From contig SGYR01000003.1 of the NCBI GenBank assembly GCA_004213405.1, positions 4,925 to 68,924 on the forward strand: a stretch of 64,000 bases of DNA. Reading direction: 5' to 3'. Below the pieces are notes generated by a model. The model was not told the DNA's origin, made no database searches, and was given only the letters and a program-made list of their open reading frames with translations. The stretch's first letter is position 1. The number at the start of each line of letters is the position of its first letter. This stretch comes from Candidatus Actinomarinales bacterium (lineage in GTDB: Bacteria > Actinomycetota > Acidimicrobiia > Actinomarinales > Actinomarinaceae). The translations under genes and the position numbers were made by a program. Below are positions 10,514-61,584 of the stretch, piece after piece.

Positions 10514-10785
10514 TTGAAGATATCCTTAAACAATTCAAAAGTAATCTGACAGATAAAAATATTGATCTAAGTTCCATTTATTTTGAAATTACAGATATTG
10601 ATAAAACATTTAACCTCGATAGTTGTGTCCAAATAAATTCATCAATTGAAGATGGAAAATTTTTAAAATTTAAAATCTCTACAGAAAACTTATTATTAAT
10701 TGTTAAAGGAAAAAAACATCCAGAAGATCTTCTTTTTAATGAAAAAGTAAAGATTTCTGGGGATATAAGTATTCTTGCTCCATAA
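10510..10785 (+). CDS. SCP2 (sterol-carrier-protein-2-like) domain protein
   Basis: 91 aa. The C-terminal pattern LLLIVKGKKHPEDLLFNEKVKISGDISIL matches the SCP2 G-x-l-p...G-k-l-k-i-x-G-D motif. TTGA overlap with the sdhB stop. Confidence 0.6.
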   Translation: MIEDILKQFKSNLTDKNIDLSSIYFEITDIDKTFNLDSCVQINSSIEDGKFLKFKISTENLLLIVKGKKHPEDLLFNEKVKISGDISILAP

Positions 10786-10789
10786 AAAG

Positions 10790-10813
10790 AAAAGACGACT
10801 TTCGTCGTCTTTT
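10790..10813. terminator. bidirectional intrinsic terminator between the sdh operon and hup
   Basis: AAAAGACGAC-TTTC-GTCGTCTTTT, a perfect 10-bp stem flanked by A and T runs, between convergent genes. Confidence 0.8.
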
Positions 10814-10832
10814 CAAATTTGATTAAAGTGCT

Positions 10833-11105
10833 TTAGTTTAAAGCGTCTTTTAATCCTTTTGCAGCTTTAAAAGCTGGTGCATTCTTCGCAGCAATTTGGA
10901 TTGTTTCTCCTGTTGCTGGATTCCTGCCTTGTCTTGCAGCCCTGTATCTTGACTCAAAAGTACCAAAACCAGCAATACTTACTTTATCACCATTTTTCAT
11001 ACCATTTGTTACGCCATCGAACACGGCTTCTACAGCTTTTTTAGCATCTGATTGTGACAACCCTACTTCTGCTGCAACAACGCTGGCTAATTGATCTTTA
11101 TTCAT
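10833..11105 (-). CDS. hup: HU-family DNA-binding protein
   Basis: 90 aa. GFGTFESRYRAARQGRNPATGETIQI arm motif. Confidence 0.95.
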   Translation of the reverse strand: MNKDQLASVVAAEVGLSQSDAKKAVEAVFDGVTNGMKNGDKVSIAGFGTFESRYRAARQGRNPATGETIQIAAKNAPAFKAAKGLKDALN

Positions 11106-25982: not shown

Positions 25983-27062
25983 ATGAAAAACGCTACAGGT
26001 TCACTAGCTATTTTAGGTTCTGGTGAAACAAGCCCTAACTTAGTTAGTGTGCATAGAGAACTTCTAAATGGACTAGATGATTCTGCAGATATTTTAATGA
26101 TTGATTCACCATTTGGATTCCAAGAAAATGCTAACCAATTGGTCGAAAAAATTATAGATTTTTACAAAGTTAGTTTAAACGTTGACATGAAATTAGCTAC
26201 TTACAGAAAAATTGAAGAATTGCATTCAAAATCATTCTTTAAATCAATTCAATTATTAGAAAATGCTTCATTTATTTTTGCTGGACCTGGAAGCCCTAGC
26301 TATGCAAGCAAGCTTTGGTACGGTAATGAATTTCAACAAACTTTAAAAAATCATCTTATAAATGGTAACAACAGTTTATTTGCAAGTGCAGCGGCATCTA
26401 CTCTCGGAGAGTATACCTTACCTGTCTACGAAATTTATAAAGTAGGTCAAGACCCTTATTGGGAAAAGGGGTTGAATATTTTAGATGTTTATGGTTTGTC
26501 TTGTACGGTAGTTCCTCACTTTAATAATGCAGAGGGTGGAAATCATGATACAAGCTTTAGTTATGTTGGTGAAAATAGAATTAAAACTCTTTTAGATAAC
26601 TCTTACTCAAACATTCTTGGTATCGATGAACATACTGCACTAATAATTTCTGGAAAAAAAGAAACATTCAAAGTTGTTGGATTAGGTAATGTAACTGTTT
26701 TAAACAATGAAGGAACTCATGTTTTTGAAAAAGATTCTGAAGAAAGTTTGAGTACATTACAAAAACTTCTAATTTCTGACAAAAAAAGCTCTGTCGAAAA
26801 AATAGATAGTAGGACAACTGAAGTAAATTCTGCAGATAAAGCTACTTTAAAAGAAATTGCTAATTTAGAAATTCAAATAGAGTCTAATAAAAAAAATAAT
26901 GAGCGTTTCGAAATGTTAGTTGAAAATCTAATATTACTTAGATCAAAGTTAAGAAATGAAAAAAATTATGAGCTTTCTGATCAAGTAAGAGATATATTAG
27001 AATCTTCTGGTTTACAAATAGAAGATTCTGAACAAGGCATTCAATGGAAAGTTACTGAATAG
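25983..27062 (+). CDS. hypothetical protein: class-I-GATase/peptidase-S51-like N-domain plus C-terminal CysRS-C-terminus-like motif
   Basis: N-terminus ILGSGETSP...FAGPGSPSY...SAAAS. C-terminus LSDQVRDILESSGLQIEDSEQGIQWKV resembles the C-terminal helix-strand of cysteinyl-tRNA synthetases. Start at ATG 25983. Confidence 0.6.
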   Translation: MKNATGSLAILGSGETSPNLVSVHRELLNGLDDSADILMIDSPFGFQENANQLVEKIIDFYKVSLNVDMKLATYRKIEELHSKSFFKSIQLLENASFIFAGPGSPSYASKLWYGNEFQQTLKNHLINGNNSLFASAAASTLGEYTLPVYEIYKVGQDPYWEKGLNILDVYGLSCTVVPHFNNAEGGNHDTSFSYVGENRIKTLLDNSYSNILGIDEHTALIISGKKETFKVVGLGNVTVLNNEGTHVFEKDSEESLSTLQKLLISDKKSSVEKIDSRTTEVNSADKATLKEIANLEIQIESNKKNNERFEMLVENLILLRSKLRNEKNYELSDQVRDILESSGLQIEDSEQGIQWKVTE

Positions 27063-27873
27063 CTTTTGGATAATGCCCCAATAACTTAAATTCTTTAGAG
27101 ACTTTATTTATTTTTTCCTCAAGCTCAGATTGTTTTTCCAAGTTTTCTAATTCATAATCTATATAAAATTTGTACTCCCAAGGTCTTCCAAGTATTGGTC
27201 GTGATTCAAGTTTTGTAAGATTTATATCCAGTTCACTAAAAATATTCAAAGACTGCAATAACGAACCTGGCTTATCATCAGATATGAGTACTGATGAAAC
27301 CTTGTTTTTAATTTGTTTCTGATCTAAATCTATATCTCCAATTAAAAGGAATCTTGTATAATTTTCTTCATGATTTGATATATTTTTTTCTAAAATCAAA
27401 AATCTTTCATCGCTTTCAAAATGTTCACCGGCTATAGCAGCTGTAGTGAGGTCATTTTTTTCTAAAATTTCAAATACACTTCCCGCTGTATCAAAGACTG
27501 GAGTAATTCTGAACTTATGCTTTTGTATAAACTTGCTGCACTGCTGTAATGCCTGTGGGTGAGAAATAACATTTGTAATATTTGATATATCTGAACCAAC
27601 TAAGCCAATTAAACTATGGTCAATTCTATGTACATATTCAGCAAATATTTTTAAACCACTGTCTATAAGCTCTTCATATGCTTCATTCACAGTACCTGCA
27701 ATTGAATTTTCAACAGGTAACAACCCAATTCCAGAATCAGATTTTACATAGGAAATTAACTCAGTAAATGTCTCGGTTGGATGATAAAGATAATCTGGAT
27801 ATTCTTTTTTTAAAAGTTCTTCTGAATATGAGCCAGATGAACCTTGGTAAGCAATTATTTTTTTACTGTTCAT
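27052..27873 (-). CDS. pheA: prephenate dehydratase with C-terminal ACT domain
   Basis: IAYQGSSGSYSEE N-terminus. ACT region DKPGSLLQSLNIFSELDINLTKLESRP. Start at MNSKKIIAYQG. Confidence 0.9.
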   Translation of the reverse strand: MNSKKIIAYQGSSGSYSEELLKKEYPDYLYHPTETFTELISYVKSDSGIGLLPVENSIAGTVNEAYEELIDSGLKIFAEYVHRIDHSLIGLVGSDISNITNVISHPQALQQCSKFIQKHKFRITPVFDTAGSVFEILEKNDLTTAAIAGEHFESDERFLILEKNISNHEENYTRFLLIGDIDLDQKQIKNKVSSVLISDDKPGSLLQSLNIFSELDINLTKLESRPILGRPWEYKFYIDYELENLEKQSELEEKINKVSKEFKLLGHYPKAIQ

Positions 27874-28300
27874 TAATATACTCCAGTGCTTCAATATATC
27901 CCTGCACACCTCTTCCAATAATTGATTTATTGCAAATATCAGAAATTAAATTTATTTTTCTAAATTGTTCTCTTTGATTTATATCTGAAATATGAACTTC
28001 AACTATTTCATTGTTTTGTGAGTAAGTCTGCAAAGCGTCTCTTATTGCAATACTTGTATGTGTGTACGCACCAGGGTTAATCACAATCCATGTATTTTCA
28101 TTATTAACTAGATTTTGTATATAATTTACAATTTCGCCTTCAACATTTGATTGAAAAAAATCAGTTTTGATTTTTAACTTTTTAGCTTCAGAATTTACTA
28201 AATTTTTTAACTCATCAAAACTTGTGGAGCCGTATTGTGTAATTTCTCTTATACCTAAAAAATTAAGATTGGGACCATTGATAATGTATATATTTTTAAT
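27863..28300 (-). CDS. aroQ: type II 3-dehydroquinate dehydratase, probable ATT start
   Basis: The ORF track shows only the C-terminal 73 aa. The frame is open upstream to 28306 and encodes (I)KNIYIINGPNLNFLGIREITQYG..., the conserved N-terminus. The only start-like codon is ATT 28300-28298, with GAGGTG 7 nt upstream. That gives 145 aa, the canonical size. Confidence 0.85.
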   Translation of the reverse strand: MKNIYIINGPNLNFLGIREITQYGSTSFDELKNLVNSEAKKLKIKTDFFQSNVEGEIVNYIQNLVNNENTWIVINPGAYTHTSIAIRDALQTYSQNNEIVEVHISDINQREQFRKINLISDICNKSIIGRGVQGYIEALEYINEQ

Positions 28301-29288
28301 TTTGAATCACCTCAATGAATTCATCAAAACTTATACTAATTAAATTAGGTTGTGATATATCTGACAATAAAACAATATCTACAGAATCAGATTTACTTTT
28401 TTTATCATCTTTTAAAATTTCTAATAAGTAATCGATACTGTTTTCAAATTCATATGATTTCTTAAAATCAAGTTTTTCTAGATACGATATATATAAATCA
28501 ATAACCTCTTGTGGTAATCCAAAATGTTTCTTTGATAGTTCAAGTTCATAAATCATTCCTATAGCGACTGCTTCACCGTGTGATAAATTGAACTTTGAAT
28601 CTTGCTCAATTAAGTGGCCTATTGTGTGTCCGAAATTTAAATATTTCCTTTTTCCGGTTTCTAAGTAATCTTCTTTTACGATATCTTCTTTAATTTGTAT
28701 TCCTTTTTTGATTGTCTTAGTATCTATTTTTAAATTTTCTGTAGTAACCAATGTATTAAATATTTCTTTACTTCCAATTAGTCCGTGTTTTAGAAGCTCA
28801 ATTAATCCATCTTTATAATCATTGTCTTTCAATGTGTTGAGAAGTTCAAAACACACAACAACACTCTTAGGCAAATTAAAAGTTCCAATCTGGTTTTTTC
28901 CATGAACATTATTAAAACCGTTTTTCCCTCCATGAGATGCATCAACCATAGCTAATAAAGTAGATGGAACTAATGTGAAGGCAACACCCCTTTTATATGT
29001 ACTTGCAGCAAAAGAGCAGAGATCGAGCATAACCCCACCTCCAATAATTACTACTTCATCTGATCTATTTAAATTTGATAAAAACATTATTTCCCAAATT
29101 TTTTCAATTGTTTCTAAATTTTTTGTTTCTTCAGAAACTTCAAGATAAACATGGCTTGCATTAAAGTCGCTATGTAATTGCAATTGCTCAAGAGCAGAAT
29201 CCAAAATAATTAAGCTCTCATTTGGTAAATTTCCATTAATATGTTTGATTAATTCTTCAGTGCTGTTTAAGTAAATATTTTTAGACAT
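28296..29288 (-). CDS. aroB: 3-dehydroquinate synthase
   Basis: 330 aa. GGGVMLDLCSFAAS, GHTIGHLIE, HGEAVAIGM motifs. Confidence 0.92.
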   Translation of the reverse strand: MSKNIYLNSTEELIKHINGNLPNESLIILDSALEQLQLHSDFNASHVYLEVSEETKNLETIEKIWEIMFLSNLNRSDEVVIIGGGVMLDLCSFAASTYKRGVAFTLVPSTLLAMVDASHGGKNGFNNVHGKNQIGTFNLPKSVVVCFELLNTLKDNDYKDGLIELLKHGLIGSKEIFNTLVTTENLKIDTKTIKKGIQIKEDIVKEDYLETGKRKYLNFGHTIGHLIEQDSKFNLSHGEAVAIGMIYELELSKKHFGLPQEVIDLYISYLEKLDFKKSYEFENSIDYLLEILKDDKKSKSDSVDIVLLSDISQPNLISISFDEFIEVIQN

Positions 29289-29781
29289 TTTGAGTTTCCA
29301 TTATTTCTAATACTTTACTTGTAGTATCTTTTACATTTTCATTGGAGATTTTATATTCCATCATTTCGTATCTTTTTATTCTATTTTTATATCTACTTTC
29401 AAGAACTTCTCTTCCGTTACTAACTAGTGGCCTGTTACTATTTTTAATTCTTTCCCAAAGGGTTTCAAAGTTAAGACTTAAATAAATGGTTTGGTGACTT
29501 TTAAGTAAATTCTCAAAAATATTGTCATTTTCTATCACACCACCACCTAATGAAATTAAATCGAATTTGTTTTGATTTGCAAAAAATTCTTTTTCTTCAA
29601 TTTCTCTAAAAAAAGTCTCTCCTTTTTCTTCAAAAATATTTTCTATTTGACCATACTTATGCTCTATATTTTCATCCAAATCAATACACCTATACTTAGT
29701 TTGTTTTTTAATGTTGTTTAAAATCGTAGTTTTACCAACACCCATAAACCCACATAAATAAAATGAATTATTCATTTTCAT
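29281..29781 (-). CDS. aroK: shikimate kinase
   Basis: 166 aa. P-loop GFMGVGKTT, ISLGGG. Confidence 0.9.
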   Translation of the reverse strand: MKMNNSFYLCGFMGVGKTTILNNIKKQTKYRCIDLDENIEHKYGQIENIFEEKGETFFREIEEKEFFANQNKFDLISLGGGVIENDNIFENLLKSHQTIYLSLNFETLWERIKNSNRPLVSNGREVLESRYKNRIKRYEMMEYKISNENVKDTTSKVLEIMETQNV

Positions 29782-30949
29782 ATTTCATGGACCATGTTTT
29801 ATTTGCCAAATTAAAACTATCAAGAGTTATGTCTTTTATTTCATTAATTCGTTTAAAAATTACTTCTTTGTTATCTCCGCCTGTATTTTCAATCAGGGAA
29901 TTTAAAAGATCTATAGATATTACACTTTCAAAAATAGGTACAGCTCTAGGGACAGCACAGGTGTCAGACCTTTCATAGGTAGTTTCTGTCTCTTTTTGTG
30001 ATGCAAGGTCAACGCTCTTTATAGGAGTCAAAGTTGTACTTATAGGTTTTAAATAAGAAGTTATCATAATAGGCTCTCCAGTTGACATGCCTCCCTCAAA
30101 TCCACCTAAATTATTTGTAATTCGTTCAACATTTTGTTCGTTTAAAACTATTTGATCTTGCACGGCAGTACCAAAATCTTTAGATGCCTCTATACCACTG
30201 CCAACCTCAACTGCTTTAACACTCTGTACAGACATCATTGATGAGGCAAGTTTTGCATCTAGCTTTCTATCAAAATGAACATAGCTACCGCAACCTGCAG
30301 GAAAATTTTTTGCAACTAATGTTATAGAGCCACCTAAAGTGTCTTTTTTCTTTCTTGCATTTAAAATTTCATTTATCATTAATTCACCTGTTTCCTTATC
30401 TGGACAAGACACTTCAGATTCATCAACAAGTTTTTTAATTTGACCTATGTCTTCTAAATTAATATTTTCTAACTTTTGCTCACCAATAGATGAAACATAA
30501 CCAACAACTTCAACTCCAAGTTGATTTAAAATTTGATGACAGATAGCTCCAATTGCACATCTAATTGCAGTTTCACGAGCACTTGCTCTTTCGAGTGAAA
30601 GCCTTATATCATCATGTTGATACTTAAATGTCCCGACTAAGTCAGCATGTCCTGGACGAGGAACTACGAAAGGTTCTATTTCTTTATCCTTCCAATTTTT
30701 CCAGTCTTTATTGATTATCTTTATTGCTATCGGACCACCAGTTGATAAATTATTAATGACACCAGAAGTAATCAAAACCTCATCTTTTTCAATATTCATT
30801 CTTCCGCCAGAACCTAAAGATTTTTGCCTTCTTGCTAGAAACTCGTCAATATAATTTTTACTTACTTCAAAATTTGATGGAATGCCTTCTATAATTGCTG
30901 TTAATTCTGGTCCATGACTCTCACCAGCAGTTAAATATTTAATTTTCAT
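29768..30949 (-). CDS. aroC: chorismate synthase
   Basis: 393 aa. TAGESHGP, RPGHADL and SARETA motifs. Confidence 0.96.
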   Translation of the reverse strand: MKIKYLTAGESHGPELTAIIEGIPSNFEVSKNYIDEFLARRQKSLGSGGRMNIEKDEVLITSGVINNLSTGGPIAIKIINKDWKNWKDKEIEPFVVPRPGHADLVGTFKYQHDDIRLSLERASARETAIRCAIGAICHQILNQLGVEVVGYVSSIGEQKLENINLEDIGQIKKLVDESEVSCPDKETGELMINEILNARKKKDTLGGSITLVAKNFPAGCGSYVHFDRKLDAKLASSMMSVQSVKAVEVGSGIEASKDFGTAVQDQIVLNEQNVERITNNLGGFEGGMSTGEPIMITSYLKPISTTLTPIKSVDLASQKETETTYERSDTCAVPRAVPIFESVISIDLLNSLIENTGGDNKEVIFKRINEIKDITLDSFNLANKTWSMKYENE

Positions 30950-31754
30950 GATCTATCCTTTCTAAAATTTTCTTGTAAGCTTCGTTAAATTTTATACTTT
31001 GTCCTGTCCATATGTTAAACGATGAAATTGCTTGAGCAATTAACATTATTGTTCCATCAATGGATGTTACATTTTTAGGAAGTTCACTTGTTAATTTTTT
31101 TGATACGCCATATCCAAAGTTATAGAACAATTCTAATTTTGAAAAATTTAGAAGACTTATTGGAAGTTTTTCGTTTTCATATGGTGGCATTCCCAGTGGC
31201 GTAGTATTTATAATGACCTCAATATCACCAGCAATCTCATTAAGATCTGAATAAGATAAGTCTCCATCCTTTTTATTTCTAGACACTATGTAAACCTTAT
31301 TATTTTCTGATAACGCATACTGTGCAGTTTGAGCACTTCCTCCACTGCCAAGAATAAGAACATGTTTGTCATTAATATCAAAATTTAAAAATTCAAAAGT
31401 TTGATTAATACCATCCACATCTGTGTTTGATAATGAAACAATATTGTCATCTACTTTTACGGTATTTACAGCTTTAATATTATCAACTGCTGATGACCTC
31501 AAAACATTTTTTAAATCTTTAGATAGGTTATAAATATTTTCTTTATGAGGAATTGTTATGTTATATCCATCAAAATCATTATTTAAACTCTCAAAGATAT
31601 CTAAAGTAAAATTTTCAATTGGTAATTTTTTATAAGTAACATCAACATTAGAAATCTCAGAGAGAGTTTGATGTATATTTGGAGAAAATGTCTTTATTAA
31701 TGGCCAACCTATTATCCCTAATCTAATTGTCATAATTTGCTCCAATTTTTTCAA
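30939..31754 (-). CDS. aroE: shikimate dehydrogenase
   Basis: 271 aa. GIIGWPLIKTFSPNIHQ, NITIPHK, LGSGGSAQ motifs. The start could instead be the internal Met at 31733. Confidence 0.88.
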   Translation of the reverse strand: MKKLEQIMTIRLGIIGWPLIKTFSPNIHQTLSEISNVDVTYKKLPIENFTLDIFESLNNDFDGYNITIPHKENIYNLSKDLKNVLRSSAVDNIKAVNTVKVDDNIVSLSNTDVDGINQTFEFLNFDINDKHVLILGSGGSAQTAQYALSENNKVYIVSRNKKDGDLSYSDLNEIAGDIEVIINTTPLGMPPYENEKLPISLLNFSKLELFYNFGYGVSKKLTSELPKNVTSIDGTIMLIAQAISSFNIWTGQSIKFNEAYKKILERIDHEN

Positions 31755-32991
31755 GATCTGAAAAAAAACTAGGATAAGAATCTGAAATACAATTTATGTT
31801 ATCTGGTTTAATACCGTTATTAATTGCTAGATTTGCAATTACACCAGTCATAGCTATTCTGTGGTCCTCAAAAGTTTCAATTTGTCCTGATTTGAGTTTT
31901 TGAGGGCCGTTAACTTTAAATCCATCAGGGTTAACCTCTATTTCTCCACCAAGAGTTTTAATAAATTTTTCCATAGATTCTATACGGTCTGATTCTTTTA
32001 GTCTCAACTCACCTGCACCACTAACGGTAGTTATTCCATTTGCTTGAGTTGCCAAAAGGGTAAATATTGGAAATTCATCTACCATGTCAGATACATCTTC
32101 TTTACTAACCTTTACAGCAGAGAGATTAGATTTTGAAACATGTATATCTCCTACTGATTCATTATTTTTGACTTTTAAATTTTCGATTGATATTTTTGCG
32201 TTCATTCTCTTTAATATCTTGAGGAAACCAATTCTTCTCTCATTAAGTAAAACATCTTTGATGATTAATTCTTTACTTTTCATTAGCCCAAGAGCTATCA
32301 AAAAAGCTGCTGAAGAAGGATCTCCAGGAACAATATAATCCATACTTCTAAGGCTTTGTACAGGCTCTATTGTTATAGAATTACCAAGTCTAACGGTATT
32401 TACTCCCATTAAATTTAACATTCGTTCAGTGTGATCTCTTGTTGGCAACTCTTCAGTAACAGTCGTAGGAAATTCATCATGATATAGTGATGCAAGAAGA
32501 AATCCACTTTTAACTTGTGCACTTGGTTTATCTGAATGAATACTTTCAAATTTATAATCTTTTGGTTCAAAATTAATTGGTAATTTACCATTGGAATCTT
32601 TTATATCAGCACCCTTTTCATTGAGCGGCTTAACTACTCTGTTCATTGGGCGTTTGATTAATTGAGAACTACCAGTTAATTCAGTGCTGAAATTTTGTTT
32701 TGAAAGTAGACCTATAAGAAGCCTTGCAGTTGTACCAGAATTTACTGCATCAAGTGAATCTATAGGTTGTTTTAAGCCTCGTAATCCTACTCCGTGAATC
32801 TCAACTTCATTGTTGTTTGTTTCATTAATTTCTACGCCTAATTGTCTAAAAATCTGTATCGTAGCTTTAGTATCTCCTGACAATAAAATATTTTTGATTC
32901 TTGAAACTCCAGTTGCTAAAGAGCAGAGTATTACTGCACGATGAGATAGCGATTTGTCACCAATAATACTTAAAGAGCCTTGGATTTTCAC
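31723..32991 (-). CDS. aroA: 3-phosphoshikimate 1-carboxyvinyltransferase (EPSP synthase, class II-like)
   Basis: 422 aa. GDKSLSHRAVIL, NSGTTARLL, DHRIAMT motifs. Confidence 0.95.
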   Translation of the reverse strand: MKIQGSLSIIGDKSLSHRAVILCSLATGVSRIKNILLSGDTKATIQIFRQLGVEINETNNNEVEIHGVGLRGLKQPIDSLDAVNSGTTARLLIGLLSKQNFSTELTGSSQLIKRPMNRVVKPLNEKGADIKDSNGKLPINFEPKDYKFESIHSDKPSAQVKSGFLLASLYHDEFPTTVTEELPTRDHTERMLNLMGVNTVRLGNSITIEPVQSLRSMDYIVPGDPSSAAFLIALGLMKSKELIIKDVLLNERRIGFLKILKRMNAKISIENLKVKNNESVGDIHVSKSNLSAVKVSKEDVSDMVDEFPIFTLLATQANGITTVSGAGELRLKESDRIESMEKFIKTLGGEIEVNPDGFKVNGPQKLKSGQIETFEDHRIAMTGVIANLAINNGIKPDNINCISDSYPSFFSDLEKIGANYDN

Positions 32992-33827
32992 TATGTGAGA
33001 TCTCTTTCTCCAAATTTATCTGCTAACGCCCTACGCCAATCAACAGTATCTGACAAATAATCTAACATAATTTTTTCGTCATTAATTTTTTGAATTTTTT
33101 CAAGTTCTGATATTAATTTATCTATTAAATCTTTGACATTGTCAACATTTGTTAAGTACATATCAGAAATCATATTTGGTGAAGTCCTAGATAGACGAGT
33201 AGCTCCATCAAAACCCCCAGAAGCTAAATTTATCAATTCGTTTAAATCCTGCTCTTTCATAGCAAGCGACACTAAGGCGGAACTTAGAATATGCGGCAAG
33301 TGACTTGTCAAAGAAATTAACTCGTCGTGTTTAGATTGATCAATCCATATCTCTTTAGATTCAATAGCTCGTACAAATTCTGAAACTAGTGCTTTGCTTT
33401 GTTCATCTGTTGATTTTGTTTCACATAGCAAAAATGGTGCACCTTCATACATTTCAGGAGTCGGTACCCACGTACTATTATCAGCAATACCACATAATGG
33501 ATGTCCACCTATTGAAGGAATCGTAGATGTATCCATTTTTTTACATATAAGCTCTTTTGTACCTCCCAGGTCAACAATAGCTTTTGTTTTCAGAGATAAT
33601 TGCGAATCAAAATAGTTGATAATTTCATTTATAGGTGTAGCCAAAACGGTAAGATCATAATTTATTGATTCTTTATGATCCAACGAAATAGCACCAAGAT
33701 CTTTTGCGCGTCCTACATTTTTTTCTGAAATATCAGATCCGCTAACTTTAATGCCATTATTAACCAACTTGATTCCCAAATTAGTTCCCATTAAACCAAG
33801 ACCAATAATATGAACTTTTTTTAGCAT
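32991..33827 (-). CDS. tyrA: prephenate dehydrogenase
   Basis: 278 aa. NAD motif HIIGLGLMG, GGHPLCG, SHLPH motifs. Confidence 0.9.
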   Translation of the reverse strand: MLKKVHIIGLGLMGTNLGIKLVNNGIKVSGSDISEKNVGRAKDLGAISLDHKESINYDLTVLATPINEIINYFDSQLSLKTKAIVDLGGTKELICKKMDTSTIPSIGGHPLCGIADNSTWVPTPEMYEGAPFLLCETKSTDEQSKALVSEFVRAIESKEIWIDQSKHDELISLTSHLPHILSSALVSLAMKEQDLNELINLASGGFDGATRLSRTSPNMISDMYLTNVDNVKDLIDKLISELEKIQKINDEKIMLDYLSDTVDWRRALADKFGERDLT

Positions 33828-34840
33828 TAAAGTGACCTTCCAACCGCCTTTGCGACAATCGATGCTTTGCTTATCAAAGTTTCTAATTCGCTAGGTAGTA
33901 GTGCTTGAGGACCGTCACATAAAGCTTCATCAGGCCTTGGATGAATTTCAATTAATAATCCATCAGCCCCGGCAGCTATTGCTGCTAACGCAACTGGTTC
34001 AACTAAAGTATTGTCGCCTGTCGCATGACTAGGATCAGCAATTACAGGTAAATGACTGTTCTGCTTCAAAAAAGGAATAGCATTTATATCAAATGTATTC
34101 CTTGTGGCTGTCTCGTATGTTCTAATCCCTCTTTCACACAACATTACATTCTCATTTCCTCTGGATAAGATGTATTCACTTGCAAGTAATAACTCATCCA
34201 ATGTTGCAGACATTCCTCGTTTTAACAAAACAGGCAACTCTGATTCACCAACAGCTTCGAGGAGTTTAAAATTTTGCATGTTTCTTGCACCAATTTGTAG
34301 AACGTCTACATATTTTTCCATCATTGACAAATGTTGAGCATCCATAATTTCACTAAAAAGAGGTAATGAAGTAATTTCGGAGGCCTCCTTTAGCATTTTT
34401 AATCCATCTTCGCCCAATCCCTGGAAACTATATGGTGAAGTTCTTGGTTTAAATGCACCACCTCTCAAACCATTTGATCCTGCATCCTTTGCAGCCATTG
34501 CAGTTTCAATTGTTTGTTCCTGTGTCTCTGCACTATCTGGACCAGCAATAATTGCGATTTCATCACCACCAATAGTTAAATTTTGTATTTGAATTATGGA
34601 ATTTTCCTTTTTGTAGTTTTTGCTTGCAAGTTTATATGGTTTTCCTACTGGAATAACTCGACTTACATTTGGTAAAAGCTTCATAACGGCTCTATGATCG
34701 TCATTTACTTTTCCACTAACAGCAACAACACTTCTTTCAACACCGTTAATAACTAGTGGATCGTGTCCCTGCTGTATTGCTTTTTCTTTTACTTTCTTAA
34801 TATCTTCATCTGTATGAGACTGCTTCATTACTACTATCAA
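33827..34840 (-). CDS. aroF: 3-deoxy-7-phosphoheptulonate (DAHP) synthase, type I-beta with N-terminal ferredoxin-like regulatory domain
   Basis: 337 aa. GPDSAE, RGGAFKPRTSPYSFQG, QIGARNMQNF and ADPSHATG motifs. TTG start 7 nt after GAGGAGG. Confidence 0.93.
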   Translation of the reverse strand: MIVVMKQSHTDEDIKKVKEKAIQQGHDPLVINGVERSVVAVSGKVNDDHRAVMKLLPNVSRVIPVGKPYKLASKNYKKENSIIQIQNLTIGGDEIAIIAGPDSAETQEQTIETAMAAKDAGSNGLRGGAFKPRTSPYSFQGLGEDGLKMLKEASEITSLPLFSEIMDAQHLSMMEKYVDVLQIGARNMQNFKLLEAVGESELPVLLKRGMSATLDELLLASEYILSRGNENVMLCERGIRTYETATRNTFDINAIPFLKQNSHLPVIADPSHATGDNTLVEPVALAAIAAGADGLLIEIHPRPDEALCDGPQALLPSELETLISKASIVAKAVGRSL

Positions 34841-34857
34841 TTTTTTTCCTCCTCAAA

Positions 34858-34886
34858 ATAAAAAAATCGGGCTTTTGCCCGATTTC
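34858..34886 (-). terminator. intrinsic terminator abutting the aroF Shine-Dalgarno (attenuator terminator; also ends the aroH unit)
   Basis: Minus strand GAAATCGGGC-AAAA-GCCCGATTT(U) followed by a U-run, then GAGGAGG and the TTG start. Confidence 0.85.
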
Positions 34887-34908
34887 ACACAACGTACTTT
34901 AGGGCAAC

Positions 34909-34953
34909 CTATATGTGCTCTCTAAAGTAAAAGTATGCGTTATTTAATTTCAT
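34909..34953 (-). CDS. candidate attenuation leader peptide MKLNNAYFYFREHI
   Basis: Hand-translated 14-codon ORF, ATG AAA TTA AAT AAC GCA TAC TTT TAC TTT AGA GAG CAC ATA TAG. Four consecutive Tyr/Phe codons, placed 20-25 nt upstream of the terminator arm. Confidence 0.6.
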   Translation of the reverse strand: MKLNNAYFYFREHI

Positions 34954-34961
34954 TAACAAGT

Positions 34962-34988
34962 ATGTTAGCAGACTATTTAGCTTTGCAA
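34962..34988 (-). promoter_or_regulatory. candidate promoter for the aro leader (extended -10 TGCTAACAT, -35-like TTGCAA)
   Basis: Minus strand TTGCAA (34988-34983), a 15-nt spacer, and TGc-TAACAT (34970-34962). The leader ATG is 9 nt downstream, suggesting a leaderless or near-leaderless transcript. Confidence 0.4.
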
Positions 34989-34996
34989 ATAAATTT

Positions 34997-35341
34997 TTAT
35001 CTATCAGGTCTTAACTTTTTGGCATCGTCTAAATAAACATGATTAATTTCTTCTAAATCTTTATTTAGGTAGATCAATATGCGAATGCACCCTGAAAGAT
35101 CACTATTAATATTTGGTGCAAGAGTATCTATAGCGGCAATAGATGTCATTCCAAGCTCTCGAAATGCTTTTGCTGGAAAAGTTTCAGTAATGTCGGAAGT
35201 TACTGTAAAAATAACAAATTCAATATCATTTTCAGTTATTGCATTATTAATTAGAATTTCATTAATAAGTTTTTTTGAAGAAGACATAATGCTTTCTTCA
35301 TTGTTTTCTACAACTGCAATTGCTCCACGTATGCTTTTCAT
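34997..35341 (-). CDS. aroH: chorismate mutase, AroH class
   Basis: 114 aa. IRGAIAV..., FPAKAFRELG, CIRILIYLN, HVYLDDAKKLRPD align with my recollection of B. subtilis AroH. Confidence 0.88.
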   Translation of the reverse strand: MKSIRGAIAVVENNEESIMSSSKKLINEILINNAITENDIEFVIFTVTSDITETFPAKAFRELGMTSIAAIDTLAPNINSDLSGCIRILIYLNKDLEEINHVYLDDAKKLRPDR

Positions 35342-35352
35342 AATATTTGTTT

Positions 35353-35381
35353 ACTATATAAAAAGAGTGGACTGATGTCCA
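35353..35381 (-). promoter_or_regulatory. candidate aroH promoter TGGACA-N17-TATAGT embedded in the groEL terminator
   Basis: Minus strand TGGACA (35381-35376), a 17-nt spacer, and TATAGT (35358-35353). The ATG is 11 nt downstream and has no Shine-Dalgarno. Confidence 0.35.
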
Positions 35382-35389
35382 CTCTTTTT
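35360..35389 (-). terminator. intrinsic terminator after groEL
   Basis: AAAAAGAGTGGAC-TGAT-GTCCACTCTTTTT, a 13-bp stem with flanking A/T runs. Confidence 0.85.
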
Positions 35390-35410
35390 TAATTCTTAGA
35401 TGTAAATTAA

Positions 35411-37051
<1,641 letters not shown>

Positions 37052-43049: not shown

Positions 43050-43190
43050 AGACTGCTGTAAATTGTCTCTGTTCACAGATTTCTCTATGTTTTTAAACAA
43101 TTTATTACGACTGCAGAGCCGAGTATGCATCCGCCGAATGTTTCGATAGCATACTTCCTCGTCACCTTTTTCAAGGCCTGGCGCTAATTG
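43050..43190 (-). promoter_or_regulatory. glmS ribozyme (GlcN6P-dependent self-cleaving riboswitch) in the glmS 5' leader
   Basis: The minus-strand RNA reads A/GCGCCAGGCCUUGAAAAAGGUGACGAGGAAGUAUGCUAUCGAAACAUUCGGCGGAUGCAUACUCGGCUCUGCAGUCG.... It contains the conserved AGCGCC cleavage site, GACGAGGA and UUCGGCGGAUGC core blocks. The region is GC-richer than its surroundings. Confidence 0.85.
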
Positions 43191-43202
43191 CTCGTTATTA
43201 CA

Positions 43203-61548: not shown

Positions 61549-61584
61549 CAAAAAAAACCGGGAGTATGAATTCTACTCCCGGTT
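61549..61584 (-). terminator. intrinsic terminator between tuf and rpsJ
   Basis: Minus strand AACCGGGAGTA-GAATTCA-TACTCCCGGTT followed by an 8-U run, then GAGGA and the rpsJ ATG. Confidence 0.8.

Follow-up and report, generated by a model that had tools for sequence, protein, structure and literature searches.

The DNA analysed here is a 64-kb window with 34% GC from a Candidatus Actinomarina (Actinomarinales) genome, and the subject of this report is a short leader, a candidate transcription attenuator, that separates an aroH-type chorismate mutase gene from the gene encoding DAHP synthase (DAHPS). NCBIfam assignments give the gene order groES, groEL, aroH-type chorismate mutase, leader, DAHPS, tyrA, aroA, aroE, aroC, aroK, aroB, aroQ and pheA, in agreement with the gene identities proposed in the initial annotation of this DNA (aroF to pheA, with aroH upstream). 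The nine genes from DAHPS to pheA cover the common shikimate pathway together with the Tyr branch and the Phe branch and include no trp genes, and a terminator scan detected no terminator-like site on the same strand inside this nine-gene operon. DAHPS carries an N-terminal ferredoxin-like regulatory domain (PF18152).

All features of the element lie on the minus strand (Table 1). Every feature that the initial annotation had listed between aroH and DAHPS was found where it had been placed, and the terminator was also recovered independently by a pattern scanner, as a hairpin of 10 pairs, 5 of them G-C, followed by seven or more U. The leader open reading frame (ORF) includes a run of four consecutive Tyr and Phe codons, and segments within and behind it can pair in alternative ways. 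TACTTTAG (34929-34922; RNA UACUUUAG) is complementary to CTAAAGTA (34902-34895; RNA CUAAAGUA), and TTGCCC (34907-34902) is complementary to GGGCAA (34880-34875). The first complementarity is part of a long hairpin, P1, whose core UACUUUAG.G.GC, that is, the last two aromatic codons and AG.G.GC (AGAGAGC in the window), pairs with GCCCUAAAGUA. The leader stop codon is located 3 nt before the GCCC of region 2, a distance that ranges from 0 to 3 nt across variants, with the two overlapping in L042.

Table 1. Positions of the leader elements and of the flanking genes in window coordinates.
Feature	Position	Strand	Sequence and remarks
aroH (monofunctional chorismate mutase)	34997..35341	-	TIGR01796, 101 bits; stop codon 34999-34997
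-35-like hexamer	34988-34983	-	TTGCAA; in relatives TTGCAA, TTGTAA or TTGGCA
Extended -10 box	34970-34962	-	TGCTAACAT (consensus TGnTAnnAT); in 47/47 sequences
Leader ORF	34953-34909	-	MKLNNAYFYFREHI + stop; 14 codons; ATG at 34953, stop 34911-34909
Putative regulatory codons	34935-34924	-	UAC UUU UAC UUU (Tyr-Phe-Tyr-Phe); conserved aromatic run
Region 1, 5' arm of P1	34917..34929	-	UACUUUAGAGAGC; overlaps last two aromatic codons; minimum free energy (MFE) and consensus folds
Region 2, 3' arm of P1	34895..34907	-	UUGCCCUAAAGUA; its GCCC (34905-34902) is the predicted antiterminator strand
G/U-rich variable spacer	34887..34894	-	distal P1 extension, pairs with N-terminal codons (34940-34933); per-species MFE
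Intrinsic terminator, regions 3 and 4	34858..34886	-	GAAAUCGGGC-AAAA-GCCCGAUUUU + U-run; DNA arms GAAATCGGGC, GCCCGATTTT; GGGC 34880-34877 is the predicted antiterminator target
Shine-Dalgarno of DAHPS	34854-34848	-	GAGGAGG; AGGAGG or AGGAGA in orthologues
DAHPS start	34840-34838	-	TTG; TTG, GTG or ATG in the same alignment column in orthologues
Nine-gene operon DAHPS-tyrA-aroA-aroE-aroC-aroK-aroB-aroQ-pheA	27052..34840	-	NCBIfam; neighbours abut or overlap

The scan detected no terminator between the aroH stop and the leader. On the other side, the U-run abuts the DAHPS Shine-Dalgarno in many orthologues and leaves no space there for a conserved promoter, as had been argued from the window alone. 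A TATTTT in the U-run of the window was considered as a promoter between terminator and DAHPS start and was rejected, as it has no -35 partner and is absent from most orthologues. The Shine-Dalgarno lies 3' of the U-run, and the terminator hairpin consequently does not sequester it.

A DAHPS protein search provided a homologue set of 46 species-representative Actinomarina/Actinomarinales genomes with 70-99% protein identity. The leader was found between aroH and the DAHPS gene in every relative with upstream sequence, i.e. in 47/47 Actinomarinales sequences examined, and the same leader also occurs in L050 and L081-L083. Conservation in all 47 sequences places the arrangement far above chance. 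The -35 and -10 boxes, compared over 32 distinct promoter sequences, have a high information content in contrast to their variable spacer, and the -10 box lies 6-8 nt from the leader ATG in all 47 sequences. A covariance model located the element solely at the DAHPS-upstream site in the genome regions searched. Two weak matches at 10770-10858 and 35343-35428, candidates for second copies of the leader, turned out to be ordinary terminators, the first behind an HU-like gene and the second behind groEL. The only truly divergent leader is that of L042; its DAHPS, used as bait in a metagenome collection, retrieved just three Actinomarina-type leaders and ~77 DAHPS genes from other phyla. No Rfam leader, T-box or riboswitch family matched positions 34700-35100 at E <= 10, and no leader or T-box family reached its gathering threshold anywhere in the window. 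The weak Rfam matches that did appear (ES173, snoRNAs, CRISPR repeat) were far below the family thresholds and were discarded.

The leader ORF bears indirect marks of a translated sequence. Across relatives it has 13-15 codons with 4 or 5 consecutive Tyr/Phe codons, five of them in L042, and the run is kept aromatic in 47/47 sequences, a conservation that the initial annotation had proposed to test by an alignment of this region. The 36 distinct leaders, which also served as the variants for the fold and pairing tests, use only UAC, UAU and UUU in the run, so that all changes there are Tyr-synonymous or exchange Tyr and Phe. Aromatic codons 1-2 are outside the core helix, yet they are still aromatic across relatives. 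The N-terminal residues vary freely (K/N, L/M/T/I, N/V/M, N/T/K, A/T/S/V), indels in the ORF are 3 nt each, and the stop codon switches between UAG and UAA. In the overall anatomy the Tyr/Phe run is the sole invariant coding feature of the ORF. Its restriction to Tyr and Phe codons corresponds to an operon without trp genes, i.e. leader and pathway match.

Selection on the leader was assessed as identity to the window sequence in 17 relatives whose DAHPS amino-acid identity is below 82%. In these distant relatives identity at DAHPS codon position 3 is 0.47, i.e. saturated, and at codon position 2 it is 0.87. The leader core, from the aromatic run to CUAAAG, reaches 0.89 and the terminator 0.98, compared with 0.63 for the spacer and 0.76 for the N-terminal leader codons. 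Constraint on the leader core and on the terminator thus equals or exceeds that on the protein-determining positions of the enzyme.

The leader folds with -32 kcal/mol (z = -4.7), and none of 200 shuffled sequences was as stable. When no ribosome is placed on the RNA, every variant forms P1 and the terminator, and these two hairpins also make up the consensus fold, which is nearly invariant, with 98.6% of cells paired. P1 anchored on the invariant GCCC is kept in 36/36 of the variants' own MFE folds. Changes on both sides of P1 number five and come from two lineages, three in L042 and two, by a register shift, in L013/L019. The distal helix differs by clade (UUGAACA/UGUUCAA, ACAAUAC/GUAUUGU, CAACGUA/UACGUUG); its cognate pairings have -5.83 kcal/mol versus -5.2 kcal/mol for permuted ones, and 124 of 10000 permutations were as good. 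The terminator hairpin has an energy of -13 to -16 kcal/mol in every variant and is 99.7% paired across variants, with one compensatory change, from U:A to G:C.

The effect of a stalled ribosome was modelled by placing a ribosome footprint on any of the aromatic codons and extending the RNA only to the terminator loop. Under this constraint the MFE structure of the nascent RNA is the GCCC:GGGC antiterminator in 36/36 variants, with -5.8 to -10.7 kcal/mol. A footprint at the stop codon covers GCCC, and the antiterminator is lost. Mutually exclusive structures are predicted, P1 and terminator without a ribosome and antiterminator with a stalled one, and the classical attenuator geometry that the initial annotation had described reappears as the predicted switch in all variants. 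The loop-closing pairs of the terminator nucleate at four nucleotides, exactly those that the antiterminator occupies.

The anatomy and conservation of the element, the coding signature of the ORF and these folds together make it likely that the leader is a ribosome-mediated leader-peptide transcription attenuator sensing charged tRNA-Tyr and tRNA-Phe. Transcription would start at or beside the A of the leader ATG and yield a leaderless mRNA. Where no ribosome follows, region 1 would pair with region 2 to form P1, the terminator would form, and transcription would stop after ~95 nt, before the DAHPS Shine-Dalgarno. With plentiful Tyr and Phe, the ribosome would reach the stop codon and cover region 2, and the terminator would again form and stop transcription. 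When Tyr-tRNA or Phe-tRNA is scarce, the ribosome would stall on UAC UUU UAC UUU and hold region 1, leaving region 2 free. The free GCCC would then pair with the GGGC atop the 5' arm of the terminator, block its nucleation and allow read-through into the nine-gene operon. Anatomy, conservation, coding signature and alternative folds are computed results; from them we infer where transcription starts, that the leader ORF is translated, that the antiterminator is kinetically competent and that the leader responds to Tyr and Phe.

Several observations weigh against the attenuator model, and some of them concern the antiterminator, which is its least secure part. The antiterminator is short, 4-6 bp, and its GCCC:GGGC core never varies, so that covariation is silent on it. 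An alignment had been proposed to test for covariation in the stems; it is uninformative for this pairing and contains just the one compensatory change in the terminator. The 6-bp pairing TTGCCC:GGGCAA that was originally proposed stands only in its GCCC:GGGC part, for the outer two U:A pairs are lost uncompensated in 11 and 3 of the 36 variants. Shuffling the free segment of the window sequence gave an equally good antiterminator in 58 of 2000 cases. Moreover, the most stable structure of the full transcript has the terminator, also when a ribosome is stalled. Since the terminator wins thermodynamically once region 4 exists, the model must be kinetic. For refolding of the antiterminator into the terminator we estimate a barrier of 9.7-11.6 kcal/mol across all variants. 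With an assumed prefactor of 10^6-10^7 per second this suggests a refolding time of ~1 s or longer, which would be comparable to or slower than the transit of the polymerase through the U-tract. The classical trp antiterminator is likewise less stable than the trp terminator.

Further difficulties arise in P1 and in the leader ORF. L013 and L019 have CUUUAG for CUAAAG at leader nt 53-55, which breaks the usual P1 register. Their MFE folds re-pair in a shifted register, AGAG with CUUU and ACAUACU with AGUAUGU, and the new UUU could possibly reach the AAA of the terminator 5' arm and move the set-point toward read-through. Mini-ORFs with four aromatic codons are present in the window at chance frequency, 3 versus 3.1 +/- 1.7 in shuffles. 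There is no Shine-Dalgarno before the leader ATG, and a window-wide count of extended -10 boxes located 6-8 nt before a start codon gave 10 matches compared with ~21 in shuffles, none of which opens a long ORF. Finally, the constancy of the His-Ile-stop tail and of the P1 loop is unexplained by a simple attenuator model.

This tail and loop deserve a description of their own. The leader codons after the aromatic run (34923-34909, minus strand; alignment columns 31-48) end in a near-invariant His-Ile-stop, and hardly any variation is seen in the P1 loop nucleotides ACAUAUA[A/G]G, third codon positions included. L042 retains Ala-His-Ile despite three synonymous changes (GCA CAU AUU versus GCG CAC AUA). 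A second layer of function behind these constant parts, which would make the leader a minimal dual-function riboregulator in a streamlined genome, appears highly unlikely to us. It might consist of an effect of the nascent peptide or of the termination context on ribosome release, or of a trans role of the abundant terminated ~95 nt RNA comparable to that reported for rnTrpL in Sinorhizobium.

With a spacing of 6-8 nt from the end of the -10 box to the ATG and no Shine-Dalgarno between them, the leader mRNA is most likely leaderless; its transcription start is predicted to coincide with the A of the ATG (34953) or to lie 1-2 nt upstream. Contig ends of short Logan assemblies, inspected as potential marks of transcript ends, are scattered over arbitrary positions. 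The neighbouring aroH appears to have a similar start, lacking a Shine-Dalgarno and close to its own promoter. Leaderless initiation as a general habit in the window was considered and found to be unsupported, as pairs of extended -10 box and start codon are not enriched. In a crude set of long ORFs, which includes spurious frames, only ~22 of 60 have a Shine-Dalgarno within 18 nt of the candidate start, which suggests that initiation independent of a Shine-Dalgarno may be widespread in the genome.

The fate of transcripts entering from aroH is relevant to the first alternative explanation. As no terminator was found between the aroH stop and the leader, aroH transcripts probably end at the attenuator hairpin as well. 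On such transcripts the leader AUG would be internal and without a Shine-Dalgarno. aroH itself is upstream of the attenuator and outside its control. The hairpin might then be nothing but a leaky constitutive terminator of aroH, with the operon fed by unregulated read-through and the small ORF separate or incidental. The absence of another terminator after aroH and the chance occurrence of aromatic mini-ORFs in the window would agree with this, as would two other junctions where strong terminators are located 15-22 nt before the next gene (groEL to aroH, and a presumed tuf to its next ORF). We nevertheless regard a merely leaky terminator as highly improbable. Elsewhere the terminator is close to the upstream stop (26 nt after groEL), whereas here the distance is 111 nt and is filled by a conserved promoter and ORF. 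The Tyr/Phe run matches the products of the operon, neither the GCCC nor the position of the stop codon varies, and a leaky terminator does not account for the stronger conservation of the leader core compared with codon position 2 of the enzyme.

As an alternative, the leader RNA could respond to a factor supplied in trans, for example an RNA-binding protein, uncharged tRNA or small ligand that binds P1 or its loop, without the ORF being read. The near-invariance of the P1 loop and of the codons after the run goes beyond coding need, and covariation does not discriminate between the models. On the other hand, no Rfam family, T-box included, matches even at E <= 10, and the element measures only ~95 nt, with a single simple hairpin ahead of the terminator. 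Indels that keep the frame, the switch between UAG and UAA, the swaps of Tyr and Phe and the fixed distance from -10 box to ATG are signatures of coding and initiation that neither an aptamer nor a protein site would need, and the first two aromatic codons remain aromatic although they are outside the core helix. A sensor of this type is, in our estimate, extremely unlikely.

Just as little probability attaches to a leader that acts mainly elsewhere, by controlling DAHPS translation or through the ~95 nt RNA or the 14-aa peptide in trans, with attenuation being secondary: aroR of Corynebacterium glutamicum is termed a 'translational regulatory leader peptide' in one paper (PMC7356990), in Sinorhizobium a trans function is reported for the trp attenuator RNA once it is liberated (PMC6614838), and the His-Ile C-terminus is invariant, but the Shine-Dalgarno is not sequestered, the 10-bp G+C-rich stem and the seven or more U behind it form a canonical terminator of transcription, the sequence searched yielded neither a second target nor a second copy, and a trans role would supplement attenuation, not replace it.

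The proposed transcription attenuation by the leader peptide can also be compared with known systems. By function its closest relative is aroR of C. glutamicum, by architecture pheL and trpL of Escherichia coli, and by mode of initiation the leaderless leaders of Streptomyces and Corynebacterium. The aroR precedent named in the initial annotation was confirmed by its description in PMC11802643 and PMC4046766 (Neshat et al. 2014): a Phe-Tyr-Phe leader upstream of aroF. Both are short actinobacterial ORFs with consecutive Phe/Tyr codons directly upstream of a DAHPS operon. In aroR, ribosome stalling under aromatic amino-acid limitation raises read-through, the same logic that we propose here, and only Phe limitation had an effect (PMC11802643). 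Unlike aroR, the peptide described here has YFYF or FFYF within 13-15 aa; the two are set side by side by functional description alone. The controlled unit also differs, comprising nine genes with the whole common pathway plus tyrA and pheA, as do the DAHPS with its PF18152 domain and the host, an uncultured, AT-rich, streamlined marine lineage of the Acidimicrobiia. An origin independent of aroR seems likely.

With pheL-pheA and trpL-trp of E. coli the leader shares an ORF of 14-15 codons that includes a run of regulatory codons and stops just before region 2, 1:2, 2:3 and 3:4 pairings that are here predicted to exclude one another, and an intrinsic terminator before the first structural gene. 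There is no homology in sequence or structure (no match to Rfam Phe_leader or Trp_leader). The Actinomarina leader is predicted to be leaderless rather than driven by a Shine-Dalgarno, it mixes Tyr and Phe codons, and it is much more compact, with ~95 nt to the terminator end and a 4-6 bp antiterminator that targets just GGGC. In Firmicutes, RNA control of aromatic genes is usually exerted by a T-box riboswitch; no T-box match was obtained here.

Leaderless leader peptides are the documented norm for Actinobacterial attenuators, as in trpL, leuL, ilvL, thrL and metL of Streptomyces lividans (PMC8079986), and the ilvBNC leader peptide of C. glutamicum forms without a ribosome-binding site (Morbach 2000, cited in PMC4046766). 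They have in common with our leader the lack of a ribosome-binding site and one or more hairpins with a U-rich stretch upstream of amino-acid genes; their ORF starts at the transcription start, as is predicted for ours from the spacing of -10 box and ATG. These leaders respond to Trp, Leu, Ile/Val, Thr, Ala or Met; the codons here are Tyr and Phe. In a 2005 comparative survey of Actinobacteria the regions upstream of Phe/Tyr operons yielded no conserved RNA regulatory structures (PMC1262725), and a literature search combining Actinomarina and attenuation returned only papers on light attenuation and ecology.

Leaders of a comparable kind were also seen in unrelated metagenomic lineages, some of them from the human gut. 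Upstream of DAHPS genes of the same broad type with ~50% identity, ~240-90 nt before the gene in L122/L124/L143 and ~250-100 nt in L088/L090/L092/L148, there are mini-ORFs preceded by a Shine-Dalgarno with an aromatic run, for example MKQNQIFATAYFYFYRVFRDSK and MNNCTFYYFSFQGYYFYPDYF, followed by a strong hairpin with a U-run and then DAHPS. They share with the Actinomarina leader 4-5 consecutive Tyr/Phe codons and the strong terminator; they differ in that the sequences are unrelated, the ORFs have 22-38 codons and are driven by a Shine-Dalgarno, and the leaders are longer. No Rfam family matched them. They are probably independent Tyr/Phe attenuators and look like separate inventions of the same logic.

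Other features of the window were recorded alongside. At the groEL/aroH junction (35389-35341, minus strand; also the same junction in L001-L046) a conserved TGGACA is part of the groEL terminator hairpin (AAAAAGAGTGGAC...GTCCACTCTTTTT). A -10-like box (TATAGT, TATCAT or TATTAT), likewise conserved, directly follows the hairpin, and the aroH ATG, without a Shine-Dalgarno, is located 6-11 nt further on. It looks like a terminator and a promoter sharing DNA, with aroH being nearly leaderless. A strong bidirectional terminator hairpin of 11 bp (AACCGGGAGTA...TACTCCCGGTT, 61556-61584, both strands) is located behind a 394-aa ORF, which extends beyond the end of the window, and 15 nt before a minus-strand ORF (start 61540, 103 aa); our guess is that this is the tuf to rpsJ junction. 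Going by the position of this hairpin, it is common in this compact genome for a terminator to lie directly against the next gene.

Within the operon, the aroQ frame at the aroB/aroQ junction (28300-28298, minus strand) opens just after a TGA and lacks ATG, GTG and TTG up to residue ~72. The sole plausible start is an ATT overlapping the aroB stop (ATTAA), giving (M)KNIYIINGPN, which suggests a non-canonical ATT start or tight translational coupling. Elsewhere in the window, a glmS glucosamine-6-phosphate ribozyme is present at 43050-43196 (minus strand), with 86.6 bits against an Rfam gathering score of 37 over the full-length model. This ribozyme is a second cis-regulatory RNA in the Actinomarina window.

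Candidatus Actinomarina is uncultured and has a streamlined genome of roughly 1 Mb with few regulators; in both smallness and abundance it ranks near the top of the free-living marine Actinobacteria. To our knowledge, the control of costly biosynthesis in such streamlined cells is largely unknown. The attenuator described here would extend aromatic leader-peptide attenuation beyond Corynebacterium to the class Acidimicrobiia. Its mechanism is a known one and not surprising as such; it is a clean and unusually compact example in an ecologically important uncultured lineage, and an antiterminator of 4-6 bp aimed at a nucleation site may interest designers of synthetic attenuators. For the organism, the analysis suggests that one cis switch of ~95 nt, with no dedicated regulator protein, would govern transcription from DAHPS to pheA, and the DAHPS regulatory domain would supply allosteric control in addition. 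In metatranscriptomes, the ratio of terminated to read-through transcripts could in principle report Tyr/Phe limitation in the surface ocean.

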